Shown: piece by piece, positions 19,851-47,928 of the stretch
How the letters are laid out: each line of letters opens with the position of its first letter
Position numbering within the stretch: the first letter of the stretch is position 1
IMG/VR virus record: IMGVR_UViG_3300044591_000410
Coordinates: 4,159 to 68,158 of that record
DNA length: 64,000 bases
Reading direction: 5' to 3' (one strand)
Source: a virus
The notes under the pieces: model-generated
The model's input: the letters and a program-made list of their open reading frames with translations, nothing else
Databases searched by the model: none
Told to the model about the DNA's origin: nothing
Made by a program: the position numbers and the translations under genes

Positions 19851-19860
19851 AGGAGATTAA

Positions 19861-28800: not shown

Positions 28801-31800
28801 GCTGAAAAAAAGATTGGAAGACTTCCAGCTTTAATTCGGACACTAGAAGAAGAACTATTTGAAGAATCCTTAAAACCAACAATTAAGAATTATAAAACAA
28901 TTCCAATTGACAGAGACATTACTGGAGTTGTAACAAAAACAAATAGAGGTGGTGCTAAGTCAACAAGGTCATTAACAGATCTTATAGGTAAGTACTTAAA
29001 CGGAACTTACTCTGAAAGTATTTTTGTACGCGATATACAGTTTGCTGCAAGACAATCTGATTTATTAAAAGCATTCAATAATTATGTAAAGAGAAATTAT
29101 GATGTTGATACATTTGAAGAATATGTAATTAAAAAAGCTAAAGATAATACAGATGAATATGCAGATGGTTTAACTAAAGGTATTGAACTACGGCAAGAAG
29201 CACCATACGCTATTGAAAAGATTGATGAAGCCGAACAAGTAATGCTCGGTATTATTTCAGAAAACTTCAAAGGCCAAACCGAAAAAGTATACTTAGGATT
29301 AGCTGAAACAGATAAAGATACTGCTCTACTGTTCCTAACTACTGAACTAGCAGAACTTCAGAAGAACCTGACAAAGATGGGTGCATCTCAAGAAAAGCTG
29401 GAAAAGGTTACTAAGGTCCAGATTAAAGCACTTAGCGAACTGCTGACGCAATACTCTGATAGTCCTCTAGCTGCTAAGGCAGAATACAATGCTTTCCCCT
29501 TATTAAATGAACTGCGAAAAGTTTCTAATGAGGCAGTAACCAATGTATCTGAAGGAAGCCCAGCTTACCTAATAGCATCTAAGCTATCTATTGAAGATGT
29601 AAACGCATACAAACGAGTAGCTGGTTCTCTTCTATTAAATGAAAATGTTAAAGATGCTTCTAAGATATTACCTGAACAAAGCATAATTAATATTCTAAAT
29701 GATCTAGAATCATTTGGTTTTATTCAGAAACTTTCTACTTCTCCATTTAAAACTATTGAAGATTTAGTAGCACAAAACGGAAGCGTAGCTTCAATGTTTG
29801 AACTAACTACTCAGTCTTTAAATAACAGTCTTAATAAAGTTCTAGACTTTAGCCCAGAAAGTTTAATTCTTGGAAATGCTGTTAGATCTTCTACTGCCCA
29901 GCACAGAATTATGGGAACACTACGCAGTGCTACACTAAAGAAAAAACTAGCTAGCGTAGCTCCTGATTCAGATGAAGCAAGAAGAATAACAGATGAGATA
30001 AACAATTTCCTAAGCTCTGTTGAAAAAACAGAAGCAGAAGAAATATTCCAAGCAATGGATAGATTGTTCCTTTTACAGCGAATGCAAAAAAACATTGGCA
30101 AGCTAAAGCCAGAAGATGTTGTGTCAGTTGAAGCAAGCGCTGGCGTTTCTAAAGAAGATATCATTTCATTCTTGAAACGAAAAGAAGCAGAAAATGTTTT
30201 AGAAATTGATGCTTTAAGTGCTAAGATTAGTACTTATAAAGCAAATAATTCAACTAAGATTATTCCAAAAGTTATGGAAAAAGAAGTTGGTAAGCTTCCA
30301 GATGTGAGTGTAGAACCTTGGAAGAATGGTAAGCTTGTTTCTGTAGCAGATCAAATTATGGATGCTCTAAAAGGTAATACTAAACATTATACTGGAAAGC
30401 ATGCAGGAGCTACCAAGACAGGGCTACAAGAAGATATGGAAGCATGGGCTGCTGGTATGAACGGTGAGCCTTATACCCCCACAACCAGTGGAACTGTGCC
30501 TATACTAGAGTCGGCTAGAGCCAAGTCTTATGACGGTAGTGGTAAACCATACTTTAATAACGACGATCTGGTTGATCCTCAAAACGCTGAACTGGCAAGT
30601 TATCTGTCTAATGACTTAGGCGCTATAACTCAGAAGTACGCCAAAACAGCGGGAGCTAGTCTATCAGCTGATGTAGCATTGAGGGATAAGATTAAGCAGA
30701 AGTATGGTATTGATCTACCAAAGAACTTTGGTTGGTCTGATTGGATGGATGTTCTTCGGGATTATGTGGAAGGATTAAAACGAAATCCTTTAGTAGACTT
30801 TGAAGGAAGAGCAATTAAGATGAGCGATAAAGAAATTAATCATCTTAAAGAAATTATTGATGGCATGTCCAGAATTCGCAGAGAGTTTACTGGTGAGGTT
30901 GATTCAACAGAGCTTCCGCCTCACGGTATTAGACAAGCAGCTAAGATGGGCAAGAATGCTTTACTGTCTACCGTTGGTCCTTTCATGGGTACTGCGGTAC
31001 TGCTGACCGAACTACCTTTCAGTTTGTTCCGAAAGAACGGTTCTCTAAAGTCCTTCTTAAAGGGATTAGAAGTGTTATCTACTGGAAGCAGCCGAAGGAG
31101 ATTGGAGCATACTGCATTTGCTTTTGAAAAATTAAACCGAGGTTTCCACTCTAAGTTTGGTGGAGAAGAATTAATTAATAATGAGATTACTTGGTTTAAT
31201 AGACTGAAAGAAAACTTTAGAAACATGTTCTCCCCAGACGAAAGAATGTTACGAGAGTCTGGGGCTGGTAGACTATGGGATCATTTGGATAACTTCTTAC
31301 AACACAAAGCAGCACTAAGCATGGAGCTGGGTGGCCTACCTCACTTTGTGGAAAGAGTTTTAGCTGTAGCTTTAGAAAAAGAAAAGACTAATATATTTGG
31401 TCTACGGTCTAAGATTAGAAATGCCTTATCCCTTATGAACACTCCTGAATTCAGGGCAGTAGCAGAACAGGCTGCTAGAGGTGATAAGAAAGCTCAGGCT
31501 GAAATTGTAAAACGATTTACTGGTATAGCCAGAGAGTCTGGAGTACCTATTGAAACTCTGTCTTACATTCGTATGGCTAAGATTGATACTCCTGAAGAAA
31601 TGGATAGAATTATCAGAATCATGGAAGTAGGTTCAGATGGTAATGGATCATTTGATGGTAATGTTGCAATTTCTAAACTGTACAAACAGTCTAACTCTAG
31701 AGTTGCAAAGAACATTGAAATGCCAATGTTTGAAGAATCAGCAGCTAAGCTGGCTTACTTCTTAGAACTATCCGCCAGAGAAGCATCTCCCGAACCATTT

Positions 31801-32664
31801 GGTTTGGGTAAGATTACTTATAAGTTTGAAAAGAATTCTTTGGGTGCTCAGCTACTATTCCTAGGTAGCTACCCCTTAGCTGCATTTAATACTTATAGTA
31901 TTCGTAATGGCACAAGCAAGACCGCAGCAGCAATGATTGCACTATCGCTGGGTGTCTTTGGATTTGAAATCTTTGCTAAGAGAATGAGAGATACTATGCG
32001 GGGTAAGAGAAACATGGAATCCAACTACGATGAGTATAGGGTTTCTCCGCTGGCTTACTTCCTGAGGGATGCCTCATATGCTCAGCTTGGTGGTCACCTA
32101 GATGCTGCCCTTGGCCCTATGTTTGTCATGGCAGGCAAGTCTATGGCTCCACCCGGTACAAGTAAGGATTTCAAGTATCAGGCTCCAGAGTTCGGGGTAA
32201 TGCCTCAGGCAGCTTATGTCAATGACCTAGCCCGTCAGACATACCAAGCTGTTAATGGGGTAGTAACTAAGGGCGATGGAAAGGAAGCGATAGACCTAGC
32301 TGGCCGGGTTGCTATAGATATGTCGGTAGGTAAAGGTGTAGTGGATACTGCTGGTATGATGCTTAACCTTATGGAAGCTACTAAGGCAGCAGCCATAAAT
32401 CAACAACTACATCAGTATGGTCCAGTGCATACACCTACGGAAGAGGCATTCCATGATTATTTAATGCAGGGATTAATCTCTCATTATGTTTATGGAAGTA
32501 CTAATATTCCAGAATTTAAGATGCCACCCGAACCTATGGTTAAACAGCCCAAACCTACAATTAAACCAGTCAAGGTAGGTTCTCAATTTAAGAAATTAAA
32601 TATAGTAGACCAACTAAAGGGATCTACTGGAGTTTCTTCCGCTTTGGCAGAATCTTTAGAATAA
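19861..32664 (+). CDS. Giant internal virion protein, gp16-like (4267 aa)
   Basis: Last gene of the ejection-protein block; Gly/Ala hydrophobic segments near the N-terminus; long coiled coils; C-terminal region resembling gp16 relatives ('YLSNDL..I..KY', 'LGAQLLFLGSYP'). Confidence 0.7.
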   Translation: MTQYSTLGQSNSFYSNFGYFQPLEETDYQNVINKSINDNINVSLAGELQPNIFSTGDYSLKLTKGGPVNPTAVDLANSVLLDKTQEWMGGIFGRQPAVIDAAYYGLFGEKASGWKYVPFVDSWSKVEQERRRVDEQFVANKQKEIDTLLSERYKEQAPLVVEALQRNLGVNWKETFAKGANNKNAYAEQVYRFLLDETRKTTNKNALYSSLLNLKSNDKPIWNWTYANILSDYDVLASTALTLGVESLLTGSAVTLSAAASSATASAARATGIRLGATQGSEGVIRLAQTIGKTTGSPNWWSLFKSDYTLSTRLPAATRNAQRVLTQALQSGKITQDQIKVLQRLRPDLFTTAATGETIIANPFSIATNARKYLQFRGLEIAGTGQKVAINSVNRSKLVDALSKVALTTDDILLVGKSSSHLNYLFKVGKSGAVQGALDGATNAVFMGKERADQMLMAENIDIPSYNLSEVISSAALFGAFGFTLGIGFGAITSPVRTGLSALTAIDGRASLGTPNAKRGLLQYVGPDRMTESEFNLRNALASVVGKQAALAAEVNANSRVAIVRDIVKLLTGSEEIGVRLVDPKFLEANNLTIEEVSGLITFITQELIGKSSKSSQIGSIPAGLMDDIIAAYAQWKRANPTAAVNAFEIKAVAGEDFLKRLTEHGVNTNNSGKPSVLKTQTIDEINQEVSFLETVEAVEKLGASVVDGKIKVLKRRKQILEAKELRRKELPDLKKQLEELNTKDKTPEVEADIKKLEEKIKRYERQAGEPLKDNNPNAVIIRSSSTSVRTLQINGFDISTSRSGLLLSMWLDTVNKIHALAGQNTAEARKAVNQLRQEAKELEEQIDSLYRKPEEKSREEIRKNWFDEQFATIKNDPTKLAQFRQALGAALSQSSATTGSRAVSMNWLSQLRFESGLGELYTRLASYGTGTADLMYSVSDVLFHTMEMLDSSQLFSYASLADMGSSLSVKEAVDRGYRLAMGVNSITEQLRRMDPRKAALIEQRVVRDIREGATQLSDTVGLNEAEINLANDLITNTRKFFTFFGDQAKKLGKDFEDSFTYVPQMLTRKLDSTQQAKLAQLGYEAAVRKIMKEGSIPWSELERLGQIERGTDGSIINIPETSLFYKTDDAGKALPLSEMVAQMPKTMDELRLLEAQRRKLNNELAELPEDLRQILEAPNTARVNKEKLKRALDEQKNRVKKLFDRAVGVNGGFNIFDINALAKSLYTMKKYATELGELDYVAYADDLLKKLDDNGLAINEKPTSPRDHIINGQDDLIKAGSKVEDLELKVVDTFAPEITLTRTAPDGTKTVEKLSEGFVVKQWVDKTKAPGLDFENPAMSLQTVLLNRAGSVAEKQAAANAGFQYTISNIVSRLEDMTGTSAGDSVRIGFNIEDLRTGFITEEHIFNWMRSEKFKSELNQIRQLTKNTGLNDVELGLLLINKYVGEAKEYQLKSIKQLAEQRATTLLENSPYAKSLQLEKTRINQELLQIEEAIKLTSSADEQKLTNLTKQKIKLLVEKENLSKELKEMEQAISLKVSSQIERTLANVSEDINTLFLKSRRAGKPLDNLDTLTVFDKRLNKVLADALNIENPNFVSWKPVDSEALSSQVKTRVVTDLEQTTKLYQQKTNLVLERIKLQKEISNTTPPSLIDAIEKAYKAAGVDDIEKAVKTFAKNNDRISKLVKTIKQKKKQLSALADDTSEEAGVLTNDIAKLEETLEKSLNKVRKTVMSERAKVATEVKKKAIKQLEKDKAKAQERLTKVEEAIGDLSNQIKALDKKSEVSVYGTLFNKLSGEEQEALLEYIKLTKGTAVGLESLVFTEQLGKELENLFEFGGPEALAKWGISPENFVDNKLNAAGRLEYLQYLAKEMPGEKGAELKASRAKFIEESTSMEKPKINLETDPKAVIERAKLRNKAIQEARELENKIVQSIEDLDADYELAAALDKVKEALELASTNTSLTEAVKVSISTELDNAKAVIQILSDLDPRFETALGYVKKQLDSIDFTNASKTGDLLVKVNKAIQALSVEDYPIKEALRTFQSSELKRLQEEYGVNIANYIETADKISDLQDSLYNELANIELGPEALINPADPNSMTYRQLFDMLYNLKHNQSNARKAIRDHLGSLPFDTADKADKLKALFTKLDELEAVEQGLIKANLEGHSLKFGEAVSNWVDETRTAFDVFKTGVNKTESTRFFNLMKEGLNTGYLISRVRGEDGKYLYRVLDLYHLTDQRYGSIVPTEVHADFDKIVSIIQVRKQTRSNLTFDKVLQRKKKLLSENEAIYGPTFEYLESFKTIVDGASVFDINYGAFFNGPELIRKEVESLRKTIQDSLEVVNTGRKEVIAAINDIQKAGRSEAKVANLSPELRSLMAEALKRQREYQETISKLLKEGFVGTNPQQAKALQSVFDRIQKLSKLSIELYEGKIPTSYEVQKAVAKAPELKAFKNRATANRRRLLKKELEENADILDSEINTANEVKELNRLGKLSKSIKREMRRVENGESSELFIKTPEGYVIPDPNLTMDRLVTLLNLSDTRPEYAVIRETANDFLRHVIYKRLVKQNKLAGREVNFRYADAIGRDVDQIEDIVGTVFASFLDFERKIAVNEPILISAGLSVKTKDLLENAQRLFDTYKASKDRAEQQELLRQIYKIEGDLDTVLLQRKLKRDDTGKVIRKKDGTPVIETSFVKYEPVDKKIKTNYLVSAAIKKYVAQSFKKNTNVERYEKALSEGLVENNVGLRSSNGDYIDPTRAEEQFEINQLLSMFAFDRDSFNQYLLRTGKLNTLGVMPNNLTNIGVIQRGYSFFIEELLRVTSLDVPEVTIGNKKYQILTKPEERTLLGRREVSRLNTNEFLRYMVDRMALEYRTLAKDSTVPSIIGNLSLEYSDKQLKEIFSRELIKEYLRVVRKDIRKVVGDTFIDLDEVPAGRLLNRLEEERRSILKNFSDEVRKNSSSKDWVDVTKPRLEAAKNKKLAALDAQIASAEKKIGRLPALIRTLEEELFEESLKPTIKNYKTIPIDRDITGVVTKTNRGGAKSTRSLTDLIGKYLNGTYSESIFVRDIQFAARQSDLLKAFNNYVKRNYDVDTFEEYVIKKAKDNTDEYADGLTKGIELRQEAPYAIEKIDEAEQVMLGIISENFKGQTEKVYLGLAETDKDTALLFLTTELAELQKNLTKMGASQEKLEKVTKVQIKALSELLTQYSDSPLAAKAEYNAFPLLNELRKVSNEAVTNVSEGSPAYLIASKLSIEDVNAYKRVAGSLLLNENVKDASKILPEQSIINILNDLESFGFIQKLSTSPFKTIEDLVAQNGSVASMFELTTQSLNNSLNKVLDFSPESLILGNAVRSSTAQHRIMGTLRSATLKKKLASVAPDSDEARRITDEINNFLSSVEKTEAEEIFQAMDRLFLLQRMQKNIGKLKPEDVVSVEASAGVSKEDIISFLKRKEAENVLEIDALSAKISTYKANNSTKIIPKVMEKEVGKLPDVSVEPWKNGKLVSVADQIMDALKGNTKHYTGKHAGATKTGLQEDMEAWAAGMNGEPYTPTTSGTVPILESARAKSYDGSGKPYFNNDDLVDPQNAELASYLSNDLGAITQKYAKTAGASLSADVALRDKIKQKYGIDLPKNFGWSDWMDVLRDYVEGLKRNPLVDFEGRAIKMSDKEINHLKEIIDGMSRIRREFTGEVDSTELPPHGIRQAAKMGKNALLSTVGPFMGTAVLLTELPFSLFRKNGSLKSFLKGLEVLSTGSSRRRLEHTAFAFEKLNRGFHSKFGGEELINNEITWFNRLKENFRNMFSPDERMLRESGAGRLWDHLDNFLQHKAALSMELGGLPHFVERVLAVALEKEKTNIFGLRSKIRNALSLMNTPEFRAVAEQAARGDKKAQAEIVKRFTGIARESGVPIETLSYIRMAKIDTPEEMDRIIRIMEVGSDGNGSFDGNVAISKLYKQSNSRVAKNIEMPMFEESAAKLAYFLELSAREASPEPFGLGKITYKFEKNSLGAQLLFLGSYPLAAFNTYSIRNGTSKTAAAMIALSLGVFGFEIFAKRMRDTMRGKRNMESNYDEYRVSPLAYFLRDASYAQLGGHLDAALGPMFVMAGKSMAPPGTSKDFKYQAPEFGVMPQAAYVNDLARQTYQAVNGVVTKGDGKEAIDLAGRVAIDMSVGKGVVDTAGMMLNLMEATKAAAINQQLHQYGPVHTPTEEAFHDYLMQGLISHYVYGSTNIPEFKMPPEPMVKQPKPTIKPVKVGSQFKKLNIVDQLKGSTGVSSALAESLE

Positions 32665-32667
32665 CCA

Positions 32668-32686
32668 ATAGTTGGAGCTATGGAAG
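32668..32686 (+). promoter_or_regulatory. Putative phage RNAP promoter copy (phiOR-like position)
   Basis: ATAGTTGGAGCTATGGAAG, matches the 5-copy consensus ATAGYTGGGGCTACKGATA. Confidence 0.6.
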
Positions 32687-32843
32687 AACAACCCAAGGGG
32701 TATACTAGGTATATCCCTTGGGTTGTACCATAGTTGTCCTATAGATTTAATATATTATAATATTATATACTATAGGGGAATAGCTTAGGAGTAGTATAGG
32801 AGTCCCCTAAGGGGGAATCCCTACTCAACCAAGCTATCCCCTA
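32676..32843. repeat. Two long inverted repeats flanking an AT-rich tract (end-of-genome / origin / packaging region)
   Basis: ACAACCCAAGGGGTATAC-TAG-GTATATCCCTTGGGTTGT; TAGGGG-ATAGCTT-GAGTAG...CTACTC-AAGCTAT-CCCCTA; tttaatatattataatattatata between them. Confidence 0.7.
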
Positions 32844-33160
32844 GGAATCTACCCCGGTAATTGCGGGGTTGGTCCCTAGTGGATATCCTTGGTATCTGTC
32901 ATTATGGCGGTAGAAATCGACTTAGGGGTCGTGGATTTACAACGGGGTATTTGACATAGTGTGGCCGCGCACACCCCCCGCCACCCCCCGTCGATGTCCC
33001 CTAGGGGCATATGCCGGGTCAATCCGAAGCAATCCGAACAATTTGCCTAGGATTCCCATGCTCCGAGTTCATGGGGTATATCTATTGGAATCAGAGGAGT
33101 TTCCCATCAGCGTGATGGTATCCCCTGCTTCTTTCCTAGTGTTCTCGAAAGGAACAAGCG

Positions 33161-33427
33161 ATGTCCAACAAGGATATGGCTGCGGCACTCGCCGCTATCG
33201 TCGCCCTGCTCTCGCAGCAGGGCATCACCGTCCCCACCACCAAGCCCGTGAAGGCGCGCAAGGCCAAGGCGAAGGCCGAGCCGAAGGCCAAGCGCAAGAA
33301 GGGCGCAACCCCCGCTCAACGCGCTCATTACAACTCCATGAAGACCAGCCACCCTTGCCCGTTCCGTCCCGGAATGGTCGAGCGTGAAGCCTACCGCGCA
33401 GCGAAGGCTGCGGGGCTGATTGGCTGA
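33161..33427 (+). CDS. First early gene, small basic K/A-rich protein
   Basis: GAAAGGA SD; GC-rich codons; histone-like 'KARKAKAKAEPKAKRKK'. Confidence 0.8.
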   Translation: MSNKDMAAALAAIVALLSQQGITVPTTKPVKARKAKAKAEPKAKRKKGATPAQRAHYNSMKTSHPCPFRPGMVEREAYRAAKAAGLIG

Positions 33428-33430
33428 TCG

Positions 33431-33485
33431 GGCGACAACTTTGGAGTACCCACCCTACGGGGTGGGACTCTCCTAGGCTGTTGCC
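33431..33485 (+). ncRNA. Conserved cis RNA hairpin motif, copy 1 (cUACGg tetraloop)
   Basis: Core GGAGTA-CCCACC-CTACGG-GGTGGG-ACTCTCC; homologous to 35413-35463 with compensatory changes. Confidence 0.7.
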
Positions 33486-33493
33486 AAGGCTGT

Positions 33494-33523
33494 GCCACAG
33501 CAGAACTGTGGCTGTTTCTTTCT
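33494..33523 (+). terminator. Intrinsic terminator-like hairpin
   Basis: GCCACAG-CAGAA-CTGTGGC followed by TGTTTCTTTCT. Confidence 0.5.
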
Positions 33524-33537
33524 GAAAGGTTTCAAAC

Positions 33538-33654
33538 ATGGGAATCATTCTTGGTACTTTGGCTTTGTTGGGTCTTGCAAGTTTCTTGGCATTTGCAGTC
33601 ATGTGGGACACCATGACCCCGAGCGACCGCCGCAAGGCGGGATTCAAGGACTAA
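33538..33654 (+). CDS. 38-aa early membrane peptide (not in ORF track)
   Basis: GAAAGG SD; MGIILGTLALLGLASFLAFAVMWDTMTPSDRRKAGFKD. Confidence 0.65.
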   Translation: MGIILGTLALLGLASFLAFAVMWDTMTPSDRRKAGFKD

Positions 33655-33660
33655 CATTTC

Positions 33661-33696
33661 ACTCAAGGTAAACCTAACGGTTTGCCTTGGGTTTCT
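33661..33696 (+). other. Intergenic hairpin (terminator or RNase III-type processing site)
   Basis: ACTCAAGGTAAACC-TAAC-GGTTTGCCTTGGGT followed by TTCT. Confidence 0.55.
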
Positions 33697-33763
33697 AGGT
33701 AGCACTTTGCTACCAGCAGCGTCACGGCTGAACCGTGATATTCCTTACAGAAAGGAGACATCC

Positions 33764-34141
33764 ATGAAGGATGTCATCATCGTGACCCGCCATGCGGGTC
33801 TAGTCATTGTCCTCGCAGAGGACTACGGAATTGCGGGGCCAGTCTTGGCCCACGTTACTGCCGCAGATGTACGCGGCAAGGCCGTCGTTGGAGTGCTTCC
33901 GCTGCATTTGGCTGCGGAAGCGAAGTCGGTGACCGAGGTTACCCTGAATCTCCCCCCCGAACTGCGGGGGCAAGAACTCACCATTGAGCAGGTGCGGCAG
34001 CATATGAAGGGACTCCGCACCTATGTGGTGCGAAGCCTTGAAGCCTTCAACCTCAACAACGAAGAGGAGTGGAGGTCGGGGTATGGTGGAAGCATGGGGT
34101 GGGGCTCGATCCCCGACCCCATCGGGAGGAAGTCGAAGTGA
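33764..34141 (+). CDS. Csx16 (Cas_VVA1548)-like protein, candidate cyclic-oligoadenylate ring nuclease / anti-CRISPR
   Basis: 'IIVTRHAG', 'AHV', 'VVGVLPLHLAA', 'LNLPPELRGQELT.E' and 'LRTYVV' follow the Csx16 pattern SRHxG..H..VIGTLPxHLAA..LDLP..LRGxELS; GAAAGGAG SD. Confidence 0.8.
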   Translation: MKDVIIVTRHAGLVIVLAEDYGIAGPVLAHVTAADVRGKAVVGVLPLHLAAEAKSVTEVTLNLPPELRGQELTIEQVRQHMKGLRTYVVRSLEAFNLNNEEEWRSGYGGSMGWGSIPDPIGRKSK

Positions 34142-34452
34142 AGAAGCATCAGCCTTGGGGCAAGGACATCGTTATCATCAAGGTTTACGACCTTGATGCC
34201 GTGCTCCTCTTCGACCGTGCTGTAATCGAAGAGGTAGCAAGGGAAGAGGCGGAGAAGATCGCCTCGACCCTGTTCCCCGGATACAAGGTGCAATGGTGTA
34301 CCCCGTCCGGAAAGACCCTTGGTCAGGTGACTGCCGCACCTGCACCGCAACACAAGTTGCCTGTTTGCCCTTTCTGTGGGCAACTCCTTGTCACCATGCG
34401 TGACGAGGTTGGAGCAAAGTGCGCCATGTGTTTCAGTTGGATCCACGGATGA
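34138..34452 (+). CDS. Early protein with C-terminal Zn ribbon
   Basis: GTG start with GGAGG SD; CPFC...CAMC. Confidence 0.65.
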   Translation: MKKHQPWGKDIVIIKVYDLDAVLLFDRAVIEEVAREEAEKIASTLFPGYKVQWCTPSGKTLGQVTAAPAPQHKLPVCPFCGQLLVTMRDEVGAKCAMCFSWIHG

Positions 34453-34508
34453 TAGCGATTCGTGGACGCAGCACCTCTCGCGCGTAAACATACGCGCGTT
34501 GGTATATG

Positions 34509-34597
34509 GGCTTGATTTGTCCTAGTGGACAACGGCCCACGGCCTCTGCATACGCGCATATGTGTATGCTTATGGCGGCTTGATTTGTCCTAGTGGA
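34509..34597 (+). repeat. Perfect 21-bp direct repeat, candidate promoter or operator
   Basis: GGCTTGATTTGTCCTAGTGGA at 34509-34529 and 34577-34597 in a non-coding gap. Confidence 0.85.
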
Positions 34598-34700
34598 GAT
34601 GCTCACCCCTGCATAGGCGAAGGCTTATGTGGGGGTTTCACCATGCATCAGCGTAGGTGTATGGTTGTTTGGTTTCTTTCTTTATGAAAGGAAGGGGCAA

Positions 34701-35408
34701 ATGAACATCAGCCCCGATATCGTCCAGCAGATCCTCCTCTCCCTCTTGCAGAGTCAGGCTGCTTCTGCCACCACCACCGTGGCTCCCGCTCCTGTGGCTA
34801 CGGCCTCCCCTTCGTGGGTTGACGCAGTCACCGCTGCCTTTCCTGCCATCGTTGGCAGCAACGGCAAGCGCGGGTCGATGAACATCGCGAAGAATCCTTG
34901 CTTCACGGCATCGACAAAGGAAGTTCACGAAGGTGTGAACAACGAGATCGCCAACGGCAAGCCGGGGATTTGGTGCGCCGAGGCTTGCTACCGTGCTGCC
35001 AAGAAGGGCATTGCGGTCAGCGAGTACCTCAAGGCCAAGACTCCGGCTCCTGCCAAGGCTGCAACCCCTTCTCCTACCGTTACGGTGGCGACCATTCCGC
35101 CTGAACTGGCGGCAATGGCCGAGCAGATGGGCTTCACCTTGGTTCCCAAGGCTGATGCTTCCGTGGCTCCCCCTGTCAAGCGCATGAAGGGGCAGGCCCG
35201 TTTGACCTGCCTTCAGACTGCGTTGGCTGCGGCCAAGGCGGGCGAGCGCGGCGCTGCCAAGGTGGAGTTGGTGCAGGTCGGACTCCTCAAGGAGTCTGAC
35301 AAGATGCGTCTTGGCAAGATGATCCCGCTGATCGAAGCGGAGATTGCCAAGATGACCACGGTCAGCAAGGCTCCTCACGCGGGAGTCCCCAACCTGACGG
35401 TGGCCTGA
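34701..35408 (+). CDS. Early A/P/K-rich protein, probable paralogue of 33161-33427
   Basis: GAAAGGAAGG SD; shares SM..PC(P)F..(R/K)PG..EA(C)YRAAK..G motif with the first early gene. Confidence 0.8.
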   Translation: MNISPDIVQQILLSLLQSQAASATTTVAPAPVATASPSWVDAVTAAFPAIVGSNGKRGSMNIAKNPCFTASTKEVHEGVNNEIANGKPGIWCAEACYRAAKKGIAVSEYLKAKTPAPAKAATPSPTVTVATIPPELAAMAEQMGFTLVPKADASVAPPVKRMKGQARLTCLQTALAAAKAGERGAAKVELVQVGLLKESDKMRLGKMIPLIEAEIAKMTTVSKAPHAGVPNLTVA

Positions 35409-35412
35409 ACAT

Positions 35413-35463
35413 CCCGAGTTTCGGAGTATCCCTTCTACGGAAGGGAACTCTCCCAAACTTGGG
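35413..35463 (+). ncRNA. Conserved cis RNA hairpin motif, copy 2 (cUACGg tetraloop)
   Basis: Core GGAGTA-TCCCTT-CTACGG-AAGGGA-ACTCTCC; followed by hairpin TACTAGTAAC-ATACGG-GTTACTAGTA (35465-35490). Confidence 0.7.
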
Positions 35464-35523
35464 GTACTAGTAACATACGGGTTACTAGTATAAGTTAGCA
35501 TCTTCACTAGAAAGGAGAATCAC

Positions 35524-37557
35524 ATGAATCAGAAACTGCTTGAGCAGCAGTTTGTGGGTTGTGTGAACAACGCAGAAGTTGTGATTGCTGGTTTCGCAGA
35601 AGCCCTTGGTAACTTGCGGTTTAGCCGCAAGCCTGCATGGTTCAAGTTCGTGCAGCAGAATACCAACTGGGTGGCGAACGCTACGGTGTATGCCGTCGTT
35701 CGCAATGTTTCGGAACGAGCAACCACCGAAGTTCACGCTGTCATTGCAGACCTTGCGTTTGCAATCCAGCGGGACTGGCAGGTGGATCGTAACGATGCGT
35801 TGACTTGGGCATGGAACATCGTTCACTTGGCTGAACAAGCCGGGTGGGTGACCTTGTACAAGACTTCGGAAATGACCCTCGTCAAGATGACCTCACGCTT
35901 TGCGTTTCAGCTGTATGAGAACAATGCGTGGGGCATGGCGGGTTGTTTCCGTCCACCGATGGTGGAACGACCACGGCCACACCGTGACAGTCGCCCCGGA
36001 GGATACCACAACCCACAGATGCGGCGTGGTATTAGCCACGGATCATGGAAGGAACTTGCGAGTGCGCCTCGCATGATTCTCACCATGAATCGCATGATGT
36101 TCACGAAGTGGCATATCTCGCAAGAGATGTTGTCCATTGCGAAGGAAGTCTTTGCACTTCCTGAAGTGATCGTGGATCATCGTCGTGATCGGTATGGACA
36201 CGACACCACGCTGGCAATGGCCGAGCAGTTCAGCGGTGTGGAGTTCTACAATCCCACCTACGCTGATGTTAGCGGTCGCATTTATTATGAGTGTGACTTG
36301 CTGTCACCGCAGGGCAATGACCTTGCGCGTGGTTTGCTGCATGGAACAGACCATGCCCTTACTGATAAGGGTTGGTTCTGGCTTGCGGTGCATGTGGCAA
36401 ACTCTTTCAGCGGCATCGGTGGCGTTGGTAAACTTGACAAGACTCCTTACAAGGATCGTGTCAAGTGGACACACAAGAACTCCGATACGCTCTGCCTCGT
36501 TGCCGAAGACCCCATGCGTTACATGCATGTGTGGTTCAACGGCATCGGGAAGGGAGCGGGATCATTCCAAGCACTTGCTGCGCTGCTTGCTTGGCGACGA
36601 GCCAAGGACACCGGACGATGCTGTTTGCATGTGAGGTTGGATCAGACAACCTCCAACTACGGCATCAAGGGTGGGCTGCTGCGAGATCAGCAACTGTGCG
36701 AGTTGACCAACATGGTTCCCTCGTCCGAGGTGCAGGATATGCACAGCGTGACGGCTACAAACCTTATGGGTTTGTTGGCTGATTCCGATTATTCGGATTT
36801 CACAACCATGATTGCTGGGACACCGGACAAGCCTAACCGCAAGTTCGTCAAGTCACCCAGCATGGTCAGCGGCTACGGTGGTACGACCCGTGGCATTGCA
36901 CAGTCGTTGTTTGGAAAGCGTGAGTGGGCTTTCCACGACAACAAGTGGAAGAAGGTTGCCGAAGAAGGCAGCATCCCCGACCTTGTGTCTGGTGACGATC
37001 CTCGCCATCAGTTCAAGGTGGCAATGGATATTGCTTCCATGTGTAAGGAAGCAGTAGAAATCACCGCTCCCGGTGCGTTCAAGGTCATGCGTTATCTCAA
37101 GGAGGTTGTCAAGGTTGCCCGTGAGAAGAAGATGGAGAACATTATGTGGTATTCTCCATCAGGCAAACTCATTGTGCTTCATCCTCGTAAGCGGGGTGAG
37201 CAGATGATCGTGGCATCATCCGAGTTTGGTGGTGCTTCACTCAAGTGGCATCCTTGGACTGATGAAACCAACTGGCGTAAGATGGCTACGGCCATCTCTC
37301 CACGATGGATTCAACCCATCGACGCTTCCCTTCTTCACATTGCAGGCAGTATGTTCCGGCATGAGTTTGCCGGGGTGCATGACTGCATCCAATGTCACCC
37401 CAATCAGATGGGGAAGTTTCTTGTGTACATGAGGAAGGCAATGTACATGATTATGGAATCCAATCCTCTTGTCAAGTTCTGTGAGCAGTTCGGCATTACT
37501 GTTGAGCAGGGCGATTGGGATACCAAGGATTGCCTCAAGGCTAATCCTTGGCACTAA
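35524..37557 (+). CDS. Divergent T7-type single-subunit RNA polymerase (RNAP-1, 677 aa)
   Basis: PMV..P...GGY; DVSGRIY..LSPQGNDLARGLL; WLAVHVAN; motif A LDQTTS; motif B RKFVKSPSMVSGYG; ISPRWIQPIDAS; motif C VHDC. Confidence 0.9.
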   Translation: MNQKLLEQQFVGCVNNAEVVIAGFAEALGNLRFSRKPAWFKFVQQNTNWVANATVYAVVRNVSERATTEVHAVIADLAFAIQRDWQVDRNDALTWAWNIVHLAEQAGWVTLYKTSEMTLVKMTSRFAFQLYENNAWGMAGCFRPPMVERPRPHRDSRPGGYHNPQMRRGISHGSWKELASAPRMILTMNRMMFTKWHISQEMLSIAKEVFALPEVIVDHRRDRYGHDTTLAMAEQFSGVEFYNPTYADVSGRIYYECDLLSPQGNDLARGLLHGTDHALTDKGWFWLAVHVANSFSGIGGVGKLDKTPYKDRVKWTHKNSDTLCLVAEDPMRYMHVWFNGIGKGAGSFQALAALLAWRRAKDTGRCCLHVRLDQTTSNYGIKGGLLRDQQLCELTNMVPSSEVQDMHSVTATNLMGLLADSDYSDFTTMIAGTPDKPNRKFVKSPSMVSGYGGTTRGIAQSLFGKREWAFHDNKWKKVAEEGSIPDLVSGDDPRHQFKVAMDIASMCKEAVEITAPGAFKVMRYLKEVVKVAREKKMENIMWYSPSGKLIVLHPRKRGEQMIVASSEFGGASLKWHPWTDETNWRKMATAISPRWIQPIDASLLHIAGSMFRHEFAGVHDCIQCHPNQMGKFLVYMRKAMYMIMESNPLVKFCEQFGITVEQGDWDTKDCLKANPWH

Positions 37558-37572
37558 TATGCTAGGAAAGGT

Positions 37573-37818
37573 TTGATAATGACGCAGACGATGAAGCAGA
37601 TCAAGCAGTTGATTTACTTTCATGCTCCCGATAAGGAGACTTTGGATAGGATGTTGGCGTTTCTTGATGCCAACGATAACTTGATTGCGGCACAGGATCG
37701 GCTTATTGATGCTTATAAGGATAACATCAAGAAGCAAAAGGAAATCATCGAAGCACAGAAAAATCTGTGTGAGATGCAGACGACGCAGATTCGGGTTCTC
37801 TCTGAAAGGAACGCATGA
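37573..37818 (+). CDS. Hypothetical coiled-coil protein
   Basis: GAAAGG SD; start could be a nearby ATG. Confidence 0.65.
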   Translation: MIMTQTMKQIKQLIYFHAPDKETLDRMLAFLDANDNLIAAQDRLIDAYKDNIKKQKEIIEAQKNLCEMQTTQIRVLSERNA

Positions 37819-38045
37819 ACAGCATATTTGTCATTGTAGACAAGCAGGGTAATAAGACCGTGGTTGATAAGGATCATACGGTCTTTATCGTTAGAGAGTC
37901 CGCCTTTATTGATGCGGAATCTAATGATGAACCCATTAGTGACATTCCTTGGTGTGTAGAATATAACCTTGACACTCTTTTGTTTTTGGGTTATAAAGCG
38001 TCTGAGTATCACATCTTTGAAGGAGATTTGAATGTTTGTAAGTAA
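37815..38045 (+). CDS. Hypothetical protein
   Basis: GAAAGGA SD; ATGA overlap. Confidence 0.65.
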   Translation: MNSIFVIVDKQGNKTVVDKDHTVFIVRESAFIDAESNDEPISDIPWCVEYNLDTLLFLGYKASEYHIFEGDLNVCK

Positions 38046-38292
38046 TAATAAAACAGGCGTTACCATTACTTTTGCCAATGGGTGGGAAATCTCTGCCCAA
38101 TGGGGGCAAGGTACTTATAGTGATGGGTATTATGAAGGTGGTAGCCGTTGCCCCAACGCGGAAATTGCCATCTTTGATAACGACGATAACTTTGTTCGTT
38201 ATGCACATCATAAGGATGATGTGATTGGTTATGTAGACCCTAATGACTTTGTTCTGATGTGCGTTTGGGCAATGTCCCAAGAGAGACACTAA
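38032..38292 (+). CDS. Hypothetical phage protein
   Basis: AAGGAG SD; 'TFANGWEISAQWG.GTY...AEIAI..DDVIGY'. Confidence 0.7.
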   Translation: MFVSNNKTGVTITFANGWEISAQWGQGTYSDGYYEGGSRCPNAEIAIFDNDDNFVRYAHHKDDVIGYVDPNDFVLMCVWAMSQERH

Positions 38293-38459
38293 TGAATAAA
38301 GATGGTTTTGTTACCGTTGTGGTTCTTAATGACGGTGAGACTTATACCGACATTACTGGGTGTTCTATTATGGTTGTCCCTGCTGAACAGTATTATAAAG
38401 CTGTTTCTGAAGGCGGGGATGCTAGGGATTTTGAACCTGTTGTAAAGGTAAATCTGTGA
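38292..38459 (+). CDS. Hypothetical protein
   Basis: TAATG overlap; 'VVLNDGETYTDI.GC'. Confidence 0.6.
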   Translation: MNKDGFVTVVVLNDGETYTDITGCSIMVVPAEQYYKAVSEGGDARDFEPVVKVNL

Positions 38460-38532
38460 TTGCCGCAGTAATTCTCTTGGCTTATGCCATCGTCGTTTGT
38501 GTTACCATTCACTCTCTTTGGAAGGACTATTA

Positions 38533-38679
38533 ATGGAAAAGATTATGGAACATTTCAATGCCCTTATGATGGCTGTTGAAGAACGGCATGAAGAGGAAGG
38601 GGATATGACGCATATCCTTACTATGATGTACGCTCTTGGTGATCGTATTATGGAAGCCGATGATGCTAACGCTGACTAA
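38533..38679 (+). CDS. Small acidic hypothetical protein
   Basis: AAGGA SD; D/E/M-rich. Confidence 0.55.
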   Translation: MEKIMEHFNALMMAVEERHEEEGDMTHILTMMYALGDRIMEADDANAD

Positions 38680-43801: not shown

Positions 43802-46282
43802 ATGCCAAAGATGTGGGACAGACTAACTAAAGAAGAGCAGGAAAGAAAAAAGAACCTGCAAGTTATTGCTGAAGAACATATGTTGGCTGTGTCTGAAAAT
43901 AAGTATTGGGAAGAATATGCTAGAGCACCCGACGAGGGTTATCCTGAACAGTCACTGCTTGATGTGTGTGTCATTCATCTTACGCCAATCTACCAGCAAT
44001 GGATAGATAATGTAGCAGAGAATCGTAAGACCCCGGAATGGGCTTACCCTTTGTTTGCTGTTGGTGCTGCTAAGATGGCAGACATTACTATAAGAGCTTT
44101 GATTCTTGAGTGGTTTAACTCGTCATTCTGGGATCGTAAGCATGAAGGGGATCTGTTCCCCATGCCTACGGCTCAGCATATTAGCCATGTTATTTCAGAC
44201 ATGGTTATTGATATTGTTTCGTATCAGCAGGCCAAGCAACAGTTCAAAGAAGACTGGCTAAAGCAGTCGCACTATCAAAAGAATTGGACTGTTAAACGCT
44301 GCAAGGCTTTTGCTGGTAAGATGAACACACTTACTAAGAAGCAGTTCAGTCGTAAACAACGGGAAGATTTTGGCCATCACATGCTGCGTATTGCAGAGAT
44401 GTCCGACATTGTTAAGATTTATAACCACCGTAAGTTTACTGGTAAGCGTTGGATTGAGCGGGTTCTTGTTGGGTTTACGGATAACATTCTTGCTGAACTC
44501 AATAAGAGACACAACGATATGGTAACTAAAGCAGCAATGCTTTATCGTCCCATGATTGTTCCTCCTGTTGAACACACGGAAACATCTAGTGGTGGTAACC
44601 TGTTGCCTTATATCCGTAAGCCTGTTGTTCAGCGGTTCAAGGATGTTATGTGGGATGAGAATGTAACTCAGAAGAATTCAACGCCTTCTCCTATGGTTAT
44701 TCGTGGGCTGAATGCATTGATGCATACTGAGTGGACAATCAACGACCGTGTTCTTGAGGTGATGGAAAACTTGTTTGTCTCTAATACAAGACAAGCCAAT
44801 CTCCCCGCTTATGACTTCTCTGCCTTTGACTTTGGAGAACCCTATCCAAACGAAGGCACTAAGGAAGAGCAGGCCAAGTGGTGTCAGCGCAAAGAAGAAT
44901 CCTACAGTAACTGGTTCAAAGAAGAACGAGCCAGAGGTCGCATGCTTGTTAGACTACAGCTTGCAAAGGATTTGAAGAAGAATGGTTTCTTCTATCATAT
45001 CTTTACCTGTGACTTTAGAGGACGGGCAAATGCTGCTTGTGATCTTCTATCGCCTCAGGCAAGTGACTTTGATAGAGGTCTTATCCAGTTTGCTGCGGCC
45101 CAACCGCAGTCAATCAAGGGCAAGTATTGGCTTAAGGTTCACCTTGCCAATCTCTTTGACCAAGATAAGGATACCTTTGATAACCGGGTCAAGTGGGTAG
45201 ATGATAACATGGAGATGTTTGAGGCTATCAATAATGACCCGTACGATACCCGTAGTCTTTGGTTGTCGGATAAGAAGAAAAAGAATCCTAGCTTCCAAAG
45301 ACTTGCTGCTATCTTCGACCTTTGCCGTAAGGATAGTATGACTCAGGTTCCTGTTCAAATGGATGGTACTTGTAACGGTATCCAACATTGGGCAGCACTT
45401 ATGAAAGATCCTGTTCTTGCCGAGATGGTTAATCTTATCAAGGTTGACAAGCCAAACGATTGCTACGGTTATGTGGCTGATCTTATGACCGACAGTATGA
45501 AGAAGACTGTTGAAGATGAGAACGCAGATGCCGATAGTAAACAGTGGGCTTCTACTTTCTTGGAACACTGGGGAGGTAAGATCTCCCGTGCTGTTCCCAA
45601 GAGAGCGGTTATGACCGATCCCTATGGTGTTACCTTTTATGGTATTCGCCGTTACTGCAAGACCGAAGGACATCTTGACTGGGTTCCTAAGGAAAAGATA
45701 GCGGGTGCTGTTATGGAACTTGCTACCTTTATTGACAAGGCTTTGAAAGATACCTTGGTCGAGGCAAACAAGGGTAAGGTGTGGCTAAAGAATGTAGCAG
45801 ACATATGCTCAGAACTTGGTCACAGCATGGAGTGGACTACCCCGTGTGGTTTCAAGGTTGTCCACCAGTATTACGAGATACTAACTAGACGATCAATAGC
45901 TAAGTTGTTCAATATGAAAGAGCTTCACTTTGGATCCCCTGATAAGGATACGATTGATAACAGCTCTGTTAACTTGGCTATCTCTCCTAATTATATTCAC
46001 TCATTGGATGCCAGTCATATGTGGTGTACTATCAATGCAATGCTAGACGCAGGCATTGACCAGTTCTCCATGATCCATGACTCGTATGGTTGCTCTGCTC
46101 CATATACTTCACTGATGCGTGAGTATACCAAAGAAGAGTTTATGATGATGCATCAGGACAACCTGCTGCTTAAGCTTAAGAAAGAAATAGAAGCTAAGCT
46201 TAAGATTGAATTGCCAGACTGTCCTATTACTAACAACCTAGATATTGGGTCAGTGCTTGAGGCTGATTACCTGTTTCAGTAA
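43802..46282 (+). CDS. T7-type DNA-dependent RNA polymerase (RNAP-2, canonical)
   Basis: PMIVPP, DFRGR, LSPQASD..RGL, DGTCNGIQH, R...KRAVMT.PYG, ISPNYIHSLDASH, IHDSY, C-terminal DYLFQ. Confidence 0.98.
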   Translation: MPKMWDRLTKEEQERKKNLQVIAEEHMLAVSENKYWEEYARAPDEGYPEQSLLDVCVIHLTPIYQQWIDNVAENRKTPEWAYPLFAVGAAKMADITIRALILEWFNSSFWDRKHEGDLFPMPTAQHISHVISDMVIDIVSYQQAKQQFKEDWLKQSHYQKNWTVKRCKAFAGKMNTLTKKQFSRKQREDFGHHMLRIAEMSDIVKIYNHRKFTGKRWIERVLVGFTDNILAELNKRHNDMVTKAAMLYRPMIVPPVEHTETSSGGNLLPYIRKPVVQRFKDVMWDENVTQKNSTPSPMVIRGLNALMHTEWTINDRVLEVMENLFVSNTRQANLPAYDFSAFDFGEPYPNEGTKEEQAKWCQRKEESYSNWFKEERARGRMLVRLQLAKDLKKNGFFYHIFTCDFRGRANAACDLLSPQASDFDRGLIQFAAAQPQSIKGKYWLKVHLANLFDQDKDTFDNRVKWVDDNMEMFEAINNDPYDTRSLWLSDKKKKNPSFQRLAAIFDLCRKDSMTQVPVQMDGTCNGIQHWAALMKDPVLAEMVNLIKVDKPNDCYGYVADLMTDSMKKTVEDENADADSKQWASTFLEHWGGKISRAVPKRAVMTDPYGVTFYGIRRYCKTEGHLDWVPKEKIAGAVMELATFIDKALKDTLVEANKGKVWLKNVADICSELGHSMEWTTPCGFKVVHQYYEILTRRSIAKLFNMKELHFGSPDKDTIDNSSVNLAISPNYIHSLDASHMWCTINAMLDAGIDQFSMIHDSYGCSAPYTSLMREYTKEEFMMMHQDNLLLKLKKEIEAKLKIELPDCPITNNLDIGSVLEADYLFQ

Positions 46283-47736: not shown

Positions 47737-47928
47737 ATGGAAACTGAAACAACCGCAACAGAGACAATGCAAATGCCAAAGCAGTCAATTGCTGCTGATA
47801 GCGTAATCGCCTATCTCAATGTCATTGCAACCGCTCTCAATCAAATTACTCTTGATCTGAATAACCAGATCGCTAACATCAACGCTGCTATTAACAAGGA
47901 GAATGATACTAATGAATCAGCCAGCTAA
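47737..47928 (+). CDS. Small coiled-coil hypothetical protein
   Basis: AAGGAGG SD. Confidence 0.65.
   Translation: METETTATETMQMPKQSIAADSVIAYLNVIATALNQITLDLNNQIANINAAINKENDTNESAS

Follow-up and report, generated by a model that had tools for sequence, protein, structure and literature searches.

A short second T7-family RNA polymerase with a changed nucleotide pocket in a lake and river phage, probably an early paralogue of the phage's typical polymerase

The window analysed here is a stretch of 64,000 nucleotides (nt) comprising bases 4159–68158 of the virus record IMGVR_UViG_3300044591_000410, and the gene in question is RNAP-1, which encodes a 677-amino-acid (aa) single-subunit RNA polymerase (RNAP) of the T7 family and is accompanied in the same genome by a canonical RNAP of 826 aa (RNAP-2). 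The source record (68,158 bp, rated complete) is linear and has no end repeats. The phage is a T7 relative from lake and river water, and its gene plan is of the T7 type, with genes for a gp2.5-like single-stranded DNA-binding protein (SSB), primase-helicase, family A DNA polymerase, exonuclease, portal, capsid and terminase, as well as thymidylate-synthase-like and dNMP-kinase-like genes. RNAP-1 matches Pfam family PF00940 over aa 279–660 (106.6 bits, cut-off 22; E-value, 1.7e-30) and the 'RNA polymerase' family phrog_414 (E-value, 1.2e-84). In BLASTP comparisons, it matches RNAP-2 (E-value, 4e-29), T7 RNAP (2e-16), N4 gp16 (3e-6) and N4 gp15 (0.03), and its identity to T7 RNAP is 18–22%. Based on the profile, the fold, the catalytic aspartate pair, motif B and the T/DxxGR motif, RNAP-1 is a member of the family of T7-like single-subunit RNAPs. 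A megablast search with the gene found nothing among GenBank phages, tblastn gave only matches of at most 26% identity, and no fused form of RNAP-1 was present among longer homologues (1186–3385 aa), the latter being weak evidence.

Residues were compared in an alignment of 123 rows (RNAP-1, eight relatives of its clade and 114 other phage-type RNAPs) drawn from the best 150 of 3668 matches in a library of 1.8 billion proteins; most rows shorter than 750 aa were excluded from the 114, and T7 RNAP was added to provide the residue numbering used below. The equivalents of the catalytic aspartates D537 and D812 (D373 and D620 in RNAP-1) are invariant in 123 of the 123 rows, and T7 R627, K631, Y639 and G640 are kept as R439, K443, Y451 and G452. 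An earlier note on this DNA, made from the letters, had quoted DVSGR, DQTTSNYGI, PRWIQPID and KANPWH as departures from the canonical motifs and had described the catalytic aspartates and the R/K/YG of motif B as intact; all four quoted motifs are present, the intact residues are as described, and Gln at the position of T7 H784 is confirmed by both the translation and the alignment. Tyr at the T7 Y571 position and His at the H784 position are found in all of the 114 other RNAPs, where RNAP-1 has H407 and Q597, respectively. Arg at R423 occurs in 113 of the 114 (S250 in RNAP-1), Gln at Q544 in 112 (G380), Asn at N781 in 111 (R594), Ser at S785 in 108 (Pro), Gly at G538 in 98 (Gln) and Arg at R632 in 88 (S444). 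The G542 position is occupied by Gly in 109, Ala in four and Ser in one of the 114, and by nothing larger, against N378 in RNAP-1. The position of T7 F882 is hydrophobic in 113 of the 114 others, and a final His is found in five of them. Since the RNAP-1 chain ends in T7 register, with W676 at F882, the earlier description of its C-terminus as a replacement of the FAFA-type foot was overstated.

According to the portions of the published articles that were covered, here and below, R425, G542, Y639 and H784 are the four T7 residues adjoining the incoming nucleoside triphosphate (NTP) (PMC4551944). RNAP-1 keeps R425 and Y639 of these and changes G542 and H784, and R632 is changed too. In T7 RNAP, G542 averts a clash with the 2'-OH, DNA polymerases having a bulky Glu there, H784 bonds the 2'-OH, and the initiating GTP is contacted by R425 or R632, plus H784 (PMC11617373). 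The T7 variant G542V/H772R/H784S still uses natural NTPs for transcription and accepts 2'-fluoro pyrimidines as well (PMC4551944), and T7 R632S is an attenuated yet working enzyme (10.1101/140871). Thus, the identities at G542 and H784 that RNAP-1 lacks are conserved but not family-defining, since laboratory enzymes altered at both positions remain RNA polymerases, and the activity of these variants implies that polymerase activity need not be lost in RNAP-1. With two of the four pocket residues and R632 changed, altered sugar checking and altered initiation are plausible for RNAP-1 on sequence grounds. The earlier suggestion of altered initiation or NTP specificity is reasonable as well, as the changes fall on residues that deal with the 2'-OH and the initiating GTP, and counterparts of T7 residues 151–203 and of the hairpin tip are missing. 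T7 H784 is equivalent to a minor-groove Gln of family A DNA polymerases. For H784Q, G542N, Y571H and R423S, no T7 RNAP paper was present among the literature matches listed, while several were found for R632S.

RNAP-1 is 149 aa shorter than RNAP-2 and 206 aa shorter than T7 RNAP (domain limits are the T7 limits after PMC11617373). The earlier estimate of about 150 aa, lost largely at the N-terminus, agrees with this total and with the 115 aa missing from the N-terminal domain, but it passes over the thumb, from which 40 aa are lost. The T7 segments without a counterpart are 3–35, 44–60, 64–74, 151–203 and 233–240 (the hairpin tip) in the N-terminal domain, and 344–359 and 365–389 in the thumb. 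The gap at 151–203 presumably corresponds to 'subdomain H', a segment with limits of about 152–205 that refolds. In T7 RNAP, the thumb stabilises the elongation complex (PMC11617373). The AlphaFold2 model of RNAP-1, built from the 123-row alignment, has a mean predicted local distance difference test score (pLDDT) of 94.1 and a predicted template modelling score (pTM) of 0.92. Foldseek placed T7 RNAP first, with TM scores of 0.76 to the promoter complex 1cez_A and 0.62–0.65 to elongation complexes. Superposition on T7 RNAP, which the earlier note had proposed as a check, aligned 639 of the 677 residues with 1cez_A (VIA-align; Z 34.4; root-mean-square deviation, 3.8 Å), and the best superposition on an elongation complex was obtained with 8dh5_M (Z 41.1 over 516 residues). 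The matches to N4 RNAPII gp16 (6dt7_B; Z 21.7 over 315 residues) and to the N4 mini-vRNAP (Z about 21) scored lower. The specificity-loop region is modelled as a beta ribbon (strands 555–563 and 572–582; pLDDT, 95–96), and at the C-terminus model residues 676/677 are structurally aligned with T7 882/883. As modelled, RNAP-1 is essentially a subset of T7 RNAP. The positions of these and other features are collected in Table 1.

Table 1. Features of RNAP-1 and of its surroundings in the window (positions of the window; aa positions of RNAP-1 unless stated otherwise).
Feature	Position	Strand	Description
RNAP-1 gene	35524..37557	+	open reading frame (ORF) of a 677-aa single-subunit T7-family RNA polymerase, stop included (TAA)
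Ribosome-binding site AAGGAG	35512..35517	+	6 nt ahead of the RNAP-1 ATG; read from the sequence
N-terminal domain, aa 1–180	35524..36063	+	lengths: T7 312, RNAP-1 180, RNAP-2 295
Basic loop NLRFSRKPAWF, aa 30–40	35611..35643	+	aligned to the T7 AT-rich recognition loop 91–103; block pLDDT 97
Short beta-hairpin, aa 109–122	35848..35889	+	located where T7 has its intercalating hairpin; DSSP strands 109–113 and 118–122
Thumb, aa 198–238	36115..36237	+	lengths: T7 81, RNAP-1 41, RNAP-2 81
T/DxxGR motif DVSGR, aa 248–252	36265..36279	+	T7 DWRGR, RNAP-2 DFRGR; R423 to S250; D421, G424 and R425 kept
Motif A DQTTSNYGI, aa 373–381	36640..36666	+	T7 DGSCSGIQH; catalytic D373 kept; G538Q, G542N, Q544G, H545I
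H407	36742..36744	+	at the T7 Y571 position; alignment
Motif B RKFVKSPSMVSGYG	36838..36879	+	R439, K443, M447, Y451 and G452 kept; S444 at T7 R632
Specificity-loop region, aa 554–583	37183..37272	+	lengths: T7 32, RNAP-1 30, RNAP-2 30
PRWIQPID, aa 593–600	37300..37323	+	T7 PNFVHSQD; N781R, F782W, H784Q, S785P; D787 kept
Motif C HDC	37378..37386	+	H619 (T7 H811) and catalytic D620 kept
C-terminal foot KANPWH	37537..37554	+	W676 at T7 F882, H677 at A883; ends in T7 register
235-aa protein gene	34701..35408	+	Ala/Pro/Lys-rich; directly upstream of RNAP-1; syntenic; candidate cofactor
Class B motif GGCTTGATTTGTCCTAGTGGA	34509-34529, 34577-34597	+	two exact 21-nt copies; candidate promoters of the RNAP-1 operon
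Class A motif ATAGTTGGGGCTACGGATA	32668, 39745, 47691, 54015, 55935		19 nt; five copies with 0–4 mismatches; motif search
4267-aa ORF	19861-32664		ends at 32664, before the early block
332-aa DUF932 protein gene	41576-42574		upstream of RNAP-2; PF06067, E 1e-33; phrog_1221
RNAP-2 gene	43802..46282	+	canonical 826-aa RNAP, paralogue used as comparator; PF00940, 2e-84; phrog_414, 9.9e-147; all canonical motifs
gp2.5-like SSB gene	47903-48460		phrog_112, E 5.6e-12

The metagenome scan yielded nine usable copies of RNAP-1, five of 98–99% identity, two partial ones of 98% and two of 74–75%, with the short fragments L093 and L094 left out. The frame is open in nine of the nine copies, with no internal stops. 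The ratio of non-synonymous to synonymous substitution rates (dN/dS, Nei–Gojobori) lies between 0.078 and 0.133 in all nine comparisons with the window and is 0.12 between the copies L089 and L092; the synonymous divergence (dS) of the 74% pairs, 1.56–1.58, is near saturation. By region, the ratio is 0.08–0.20 against L089. The corresponding values for RNAP-2 are 0.080 and 0.024. These low ratios contradict relaxed selection: RNAP-1 is under purifying selection and is not a relaxed or decaying copy.

Full-length relatives of RNAP-1 are few, namely P0002 (74% identity), P0050 and P0003 (37–40%), P0051 and P0004 (32–33%), P0052 and P0054 (30%) and P0055 (27%), and the remaining matches align only from about residue 220 onward. 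All four viral contigs that carry a full-length relative (L004, 41%; L005–L007, 31%) also encode a canonical RNAP of ~833 aa, which is found 7–9 kb downstream of the short RNAP on the same strand and in the same order. The proposal that RNAP-1 is a specialised polymerase under selection is borne out by this retention of both polymerases in four of four related contigs and by the dN/dS of 0.08–0.13. In L008, a single RNAP is present, which matches RNAP-1 at 26% from residue 99 only and has no N-terminal match. Contig searches with P0054 and P0055 gave no usable loci among viral contigs, and the viral-contig search with the RNAP-1 protein alone gave no related loci. L004 is 69% identical to the window in RNAP-2 and 41% in RNAP-1, L005 is 50% and 31% identical, respectively, and path lengths are 2.3–3.5 times longer for RNAP-1 than for RNAP-2 (IQ-TREE, 39 rows). 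Overall, RNAP-1 evolves faster than RNAP-2, by a factor of 2–3.5.

In three of three trees, an exclusive group is made up of the short clade together with that of RNAP-2: FastTree with 128 rows (support 99; in this tree P0090 joins the short clade), IQ-TREE LG+G4 with 39 rows (Shimodaira–Hasegawa-like approximate likelihood ratio test (SH-aLRT), 100), and IQ-TREE LG+C20+F+G4 with 46 rows and a quick posterior mean site frequency (PMSF) run (SH-aLRT, 100). In the 39-row tree, 22 eligible others were drawn at random, and 16 rows with long branches or odd composition were excluded together with P0003 and P0004; in the 46-row tree, 30 of 109 others were drawn and long branches were kept. The inner branching is identical in both clades, with the window and L004 paired and L005 outside. 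This agreement and the sister placement suggest that the phage's own polymerase was duplicated long ago, after which both copies would have been co-inherited.

Within the short clade, P0054 and P0055 are canonical, with motif A DGTCNGQQH, Y571, N781 (in P0055), H784 and S785. The intermediates P0051, P0004 and P0052 carry G538A, G542N or G542S, and Y571R or Y571H; P0050 and P0003 add R423S, G538Q, Q544G and N781R; RNAP-1 and P0002, the most derived, add H545I, H784Q, S785P and F882W. Across the nine clade members, position 542 is Asn in six and Ser in one, Y571 is replaced in seven, Y639 is kept in nine, R423S, Q544G and N781R occur in four each, and H784Q with S785P is found in two (RNAP-1 and the 74%-identical P0002). 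Conservation of the substitutions in homologues had been set beforehand as the test of a specialised enzyme, and most of the changes are indeed shared in the clade, H784Q and S785P being confined to the two members just named. Judged from this distribution, the pocket changes have built up stepwise along the short clade, with G542N old within it and H784Q young.

Additional RNAPs of ~650 aa have been reported in 23 AG-10.1 and 17 AG-14 marine Autographiviridae genomes (PMC12361551, Commun Biol 2025). In AG-10.1, the gene for the extra RNAP sits among small genes, upstream of that for a typical ~800-aa RNAP and downstream of one for a protein of 3274–5566 aa; the genomes are enlarged, and the authors put forward horizontal transfer as well as a use of different polymerases for different genes (PMC12361551). 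The window matches this layout, with a 677-aa RNAP at 35524, an 826-aa RNAP at 43802, the 4267-aa ORF at 19861-32664 and a record of 68,158 bp, so that the two-polymerase design is not new, and by this layout RNAP-1 is the counterpart of the 'additional RNAP' in large Autographiviridae of the AG-10.1 type. The likeness covers the short second RNAP upstream of the typical one, the small unknown genes around it, the giant-protein gene, the enlarged genome and the low identity of the extra RNAP to other RNAPs. There are differences as well: the AG-10.1 phages are marine, whereas the present phage comes from lake and river water; the latter has a match to gp2.5-like SSB, whereas AG-10.1 is stated to have no SSB (PMC12361551), either because the lake lineage differs or because marine SSBs escaped annotation; and horizontal transfer is proposed there, whereas the present trees place the short RNAP as sister to the typical RNAP of the same phages. 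The article also reports a PF00940 domain in four AG-10.1 giant proteins (PMC12361551); in the window, no RNAP domain was detected in the 4267-, 1205- and 1656-aa proteins (19861-32664, 16233-19850 and 1040-6010) with a hidden Markov model of the 123 RNAPs at maximum sensitivity, Pfam or PHROGs. Neither the literature searches nor the covered part of the main text of PMC12361551 contained the pocket remodelling, the domain losses mapped on T7 RNAP, selection measures, the sister relation or the RNA-library evidence described here.

With T7 RNAP itself, RNAP-1 shares the fold (639 of its 677 residues aligned), the three motifs A, B and C, R627, K631, Y639, H811 and D787, the AT-loop-like basic loop, the specificity loop and a C-terminal foot in register. 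It differs by R423S, G538Q, G542N, Q544G, H545I, Y571H, R632S, N781R, H784Q, S785P and F882W, and by its 206 aa shorter chain, with the N-terminal domain and thumb cut and no counterpart of 151–203 or 233–240. The engineered T7 variants (VRS, which is G542V/H772R/H784S; Y639F/H784A; R632S) resemble RNAP-1 in that G542, H784 and R632 are changed, with activity retained in the laboratory enzymes. They are, however, laboratory mutants with other side chains, whereas RNAP-1 is a natural enzyme that carries Asn, Gln and Ser at these positions, has Y571H, R423S, Q544G and N781R in addition, and evolved under purifying selection.

A minimal RNAP with both the thumb and the N-terminal domain truncated is also known from phage N4, whose RNAPII consists of gp15 (269 aa) and gp16 (404 aa), 673 aa in all, binds single-stranded DNA only and needs the cofactor gp2; for N4 vRNAP, SSB is thought to replace the missing part of the N-terminal domain (PMC4496689). 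RNAP-1 is like N4 RNAPII in total size, in both truncations, in being the second of two phage polymerases and in its place among early genes, and N4 motif A also departs at G538 (DATSSG). On the other hand, the N4 enzyme is split in two subunits and keeps His at the H784 position, whereas RNAP-1 is a single chain of 677 aa with a specificity loop. Membership of the N4 RNAPII-type heterodimers was considered and is ruled out by the single ORF and by the closer kinship to T7-type RNAPs.

RNAP-1 belongs to an early block (32665–37600, from the end of the giant ORF through RNAP-1) with 50–58% G+C, compared with 34–42% in the flanks; in the window, the block around RNAP-1 has 50–56% and the rest about 40%. 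A GC-rich block is also present in L004 (1000–6000), L005–L007 (L005, 4000–12000), L087 (8000–12000) and L092 (5000–9125), and the contrast persists in relatives whose RNAP-1 is just 31–41% identical. Since the block recurs across relatives, it is a lineage trait and not a mark of recent import. The bias could be due to host codon adaptation for host-dependent early expression, or to a role in DNA entry.

The whole-window repeat search returned low-complexity coding repeats only and no promoter families, and in the scan of 32.4–38.4 kb for sigma-70 promoters and terminators, promoters were found at chance level (six, with 5.4 expected). Besides the two exact copies of class B motif GGCTTGATTTGTCCTAGTGGA upstream of RNAP-1, a copy of its core is located at 32874. 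The core is found at corresponding positions in L089 and L092, the 74% relatives, in which the specificity loop of RNAP-1 is nearly unchanged with respect to the window, and is absent in L004 and L005. Class A motif ATAGTTGGGGCTACGGATA is kept in L004 (537 and 8719), where one copy directly follows the giant-ORF end; RNAP-2 of L004 is 69% identical to that of the window and has nearly the same specificity-loop region. Class A is kept where RNAP-2 is conserved and class B only where RNAP-1 is 74% identical; although the numbers are small, the distribution fits a pairing in which RNAP-2 would act at class A and RNAP-1 at class B.

Part of the region 32600–38600 is contained in 24 public runs, six of which are river metatranscriptomes, and the contigs of four runs were mapped. 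RNA-library contigs cover the whole RNAP-1 ORF in four of the four river runs, in one of which (X19) a single contig spans 35473–37557 with 35 differences, and RNAP-1 is probably expressed. In all four runs, contigs stop at 35467–35473, with only three unaligned letters and no loose end; this stop falls within the 5' arm of a hairpin in the region 35463–35491, 50–56 nt before the RNAP-1 ATG. In three of the four runs, the contigs over the upstream 235-aa gene begin at 34541–34544, that is, 12–15 nt past the first class B copy. These are weak hints that 35467–35473 may be an RNA processing site and 34541–34544 a transcription start; RNase III is known to process T7 early RNA. Parts of 32.8–34.4 kb are without RNA-library contigs, and the river strain may differ there.

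In view of these results, it is likely, with a probability of about 0.6, that RNAP-1 is a working, minimal, promoter-specific early paralogue of RNAP-2 with altered initiation and sugar checking. Its gene is part of the GC-rich early block, with some 2.9 kb between it and what is likely the left end of the genome, and by this position RNAP-1 would be made first, from transcripts of the host RNAP. It may then read a promoter class of its own, for which the duplicated GGCTTGATTTGTCCTAGTGGA is the candidate, and boost and extend early transcription and thereby DNA entry, with RNAP-2 later taking over at the ATAGTTGGGGCTACGGATA promoters. The role of a DNA-entry motor, put forward by the earlier note, is suggested by gene position only. 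Loss of the counterpart of T7 151–203 and of half of the thumb would be expected to bring a different switch from initiation to elongation and lower processivity, perhaps in combination with a helper protein of the kind that N4 RNAPII needs. From the substitutions G542N, Y571H, R632S and H784Q, acquired stepwise, altered sugar checking and an altered choice of the initiating nucleotide are predicted, with RNA synthesis retained.

Several points weigh against this interpretation. The genome end is placed from gene order only, and we infer the temporal order from host RNAP to RNAP-1 to RNAP-2. The trees are unrooted, their rows are the best 150 matches to RNAP-1 and not all RNAPs, and the 2025 article reads its own tree as horizontal transfer (PMC12361551). 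H784Q and S785P are common to RNAP-1 and one 74%-identical relative only. R627 is Ala or Ser in P0051 and P0004, which shows drift within the short clade even at 'invariant' positions, and the Asp of DxxGR varies. The assignment of promoter classes is drawn from two to three motif copies and co-variation in few contigs, and the RNA-library contigs show neither strand, level nor true 5' ends, with DNA carry-over possible.

The truncations that RNAP-1 has in common with N4 RNAPII, together with its size (PMC4496689), could also be read as those of a polymerase that depends on a cofactor and recognises no promoter by itself. Such an enzyme would bind DNA that is single-stranded or already opened, and would be recruited by a small early protein, e.g., the 235-aa one. 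In favour of this, the intercalating-hairpin tip is absent, and the 235-aa gene is found directly upstream also in L087, L089 and L004. However, RNAP-1 has the AT-loop-like basic loop and the 30-aa specificity loop, both confidently modelled, its sequence resembles those of N4 gp15 and gp16 only marginally (E-values, 0.03 and 3e-6), and the structural match to gp16 reaches Z 21.7 compared with 34–41 for T7 RNAP, which makes this reading unlikely. It is quite unlikely that the changed residues reflect a changed substrate, i.e., that RNAP-1 prefers or tolerates dNTPs, 2'-modified or odd nucleotides and makes DNA, mixed primers or modified RNA. The residue at G542 is never larger than Ser, and that at H784 is always His, in the 114 other RNAPs; DNA polymerases carry a bulky Glu at the former position and the latter residue bonds the 2'-OH (PMC11617373); the laboratory G542V/H784S enzyme accepts 2'-fluoro pyrimidines (PMC4551944); and the thymidylate-synthase-like and dNMP-kinase-like genes may point to unusual nucleotides. 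Yet Y639 is kept in all nine clade members, G542N is present in members that still have H784, so that G542N and H784Q are not one package, and Asn or Gln could form the 2'-OH hydrogen bond instead. Moreover, the phage already possesses a primase-helicase and a family A DNA polymerase; the earlier idea of a priming enzyme is unsupported.

Bacterial viperin-like enzymes make chain terminators that are active against T7 transcription, and a rebuilt pocket might serve to evade such a host weapon against T7-type polymerases, be it chain-terminating analogues or a protein inhibitor. The location of RNAP-1 in the early block, its faster evolution than RNAP-2 and the clustering of changes at nucleotide-contacting residues would agree with a counter-defence function, but RNAP-1 counts among the lineage's stable, syntenic core genes, as opposed to variable accessory ones, and a dN/dS of about 0.1 denotes constraint and no whole-protein arms race; we regard this explanation as very unlikely. 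The faster evolution and the replacement of several otherwise invariant residues could further be taken as signs that RNAP-1 is a duplicate in decay or without catalysis, retained by chance or in a purely structural role. This is extremely improbable in the face of a dN/dS of 0.08–0.13, a frame intact in nine of nine copies, retention of the catalytic Asp pair, R627, K631 and Y639, conservation with RNAP-2 in four of four related contigs down to 31% identity, and coverage by RNA-library contigs. The more general proposition that RNAP-1 is not a strict, GTP-initiating ribonucleotide transcriptase, but would take 2'-modified or deoxy nucleotides, resist analogue defences or start with another nucleotide, is tentative and, on balance, unlikely.

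The standard enzyme of in vitro RNA production is T7 RNA polymerase, and engineers mutate its residues G542, H784, Y639 and R425 for acceptance of modified nucleotides. RNAP-1 is a natural enzyme changed at two of these four residues, plus Y571, R632, R423, Q544 and N781, and is 206 aa smaller than the T7 enzyme; the clade intermediates, leading from the canonical P0054 and P0055 to RNAP-1, provide a natural mutational path along which the changes can be tested. If the chemistry suggested by the rebuilt pocket were real, the phage would have an early enzyme with chemistry that RNAP-2 lacks, and biotechnology a minimal orthogonal polymerase for modified RNA. If RNAP-1 behaved like RNAP-2 in vitro, it would be one more member of a described gene class. 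With respect to the 2025 report, the present analysis adds that the extra RNAP looks like an old duplicate and not an import, that it is co-inherited with the normal polymerase and evolves faster, that it lies in a conserved GC-rich early block, and that it is present in river RNA libraries.

The 235-aa protein encoded directly upstream of RNAP-1 matched no Pfam or PHROG family. Its homologues lie directly upstream of the short RNAP in L087 (77% identity), L089 (56%) and L004 (30%), and the gene has dN/dS values of 0.41 and 0.21, compared with about 0.1 for RNAP-1. The protein evolves much faster than RNAP-1, as seen in L087 (77% versus 98% for RNAP-1). Complex prediction for RNAP-1 and the 235-aa protein, run without controls, gave a score of 0.00, which is silent on binding either way. 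At the place of the DUF932 gene, ORFs of 335 and 337 aa are found in L004 and L005, respectively, likened to it by size and position alone. In L087, RNAP-2 (18984-21461) is 91% identical to window positions 43802-46279 (dS 0.73), whereas RNAP-1 of the same contig is 98% identical (dS 0.09); as judged from these sequences, the contrast indicates a mosaic exchange of modules among co-occurring strains.

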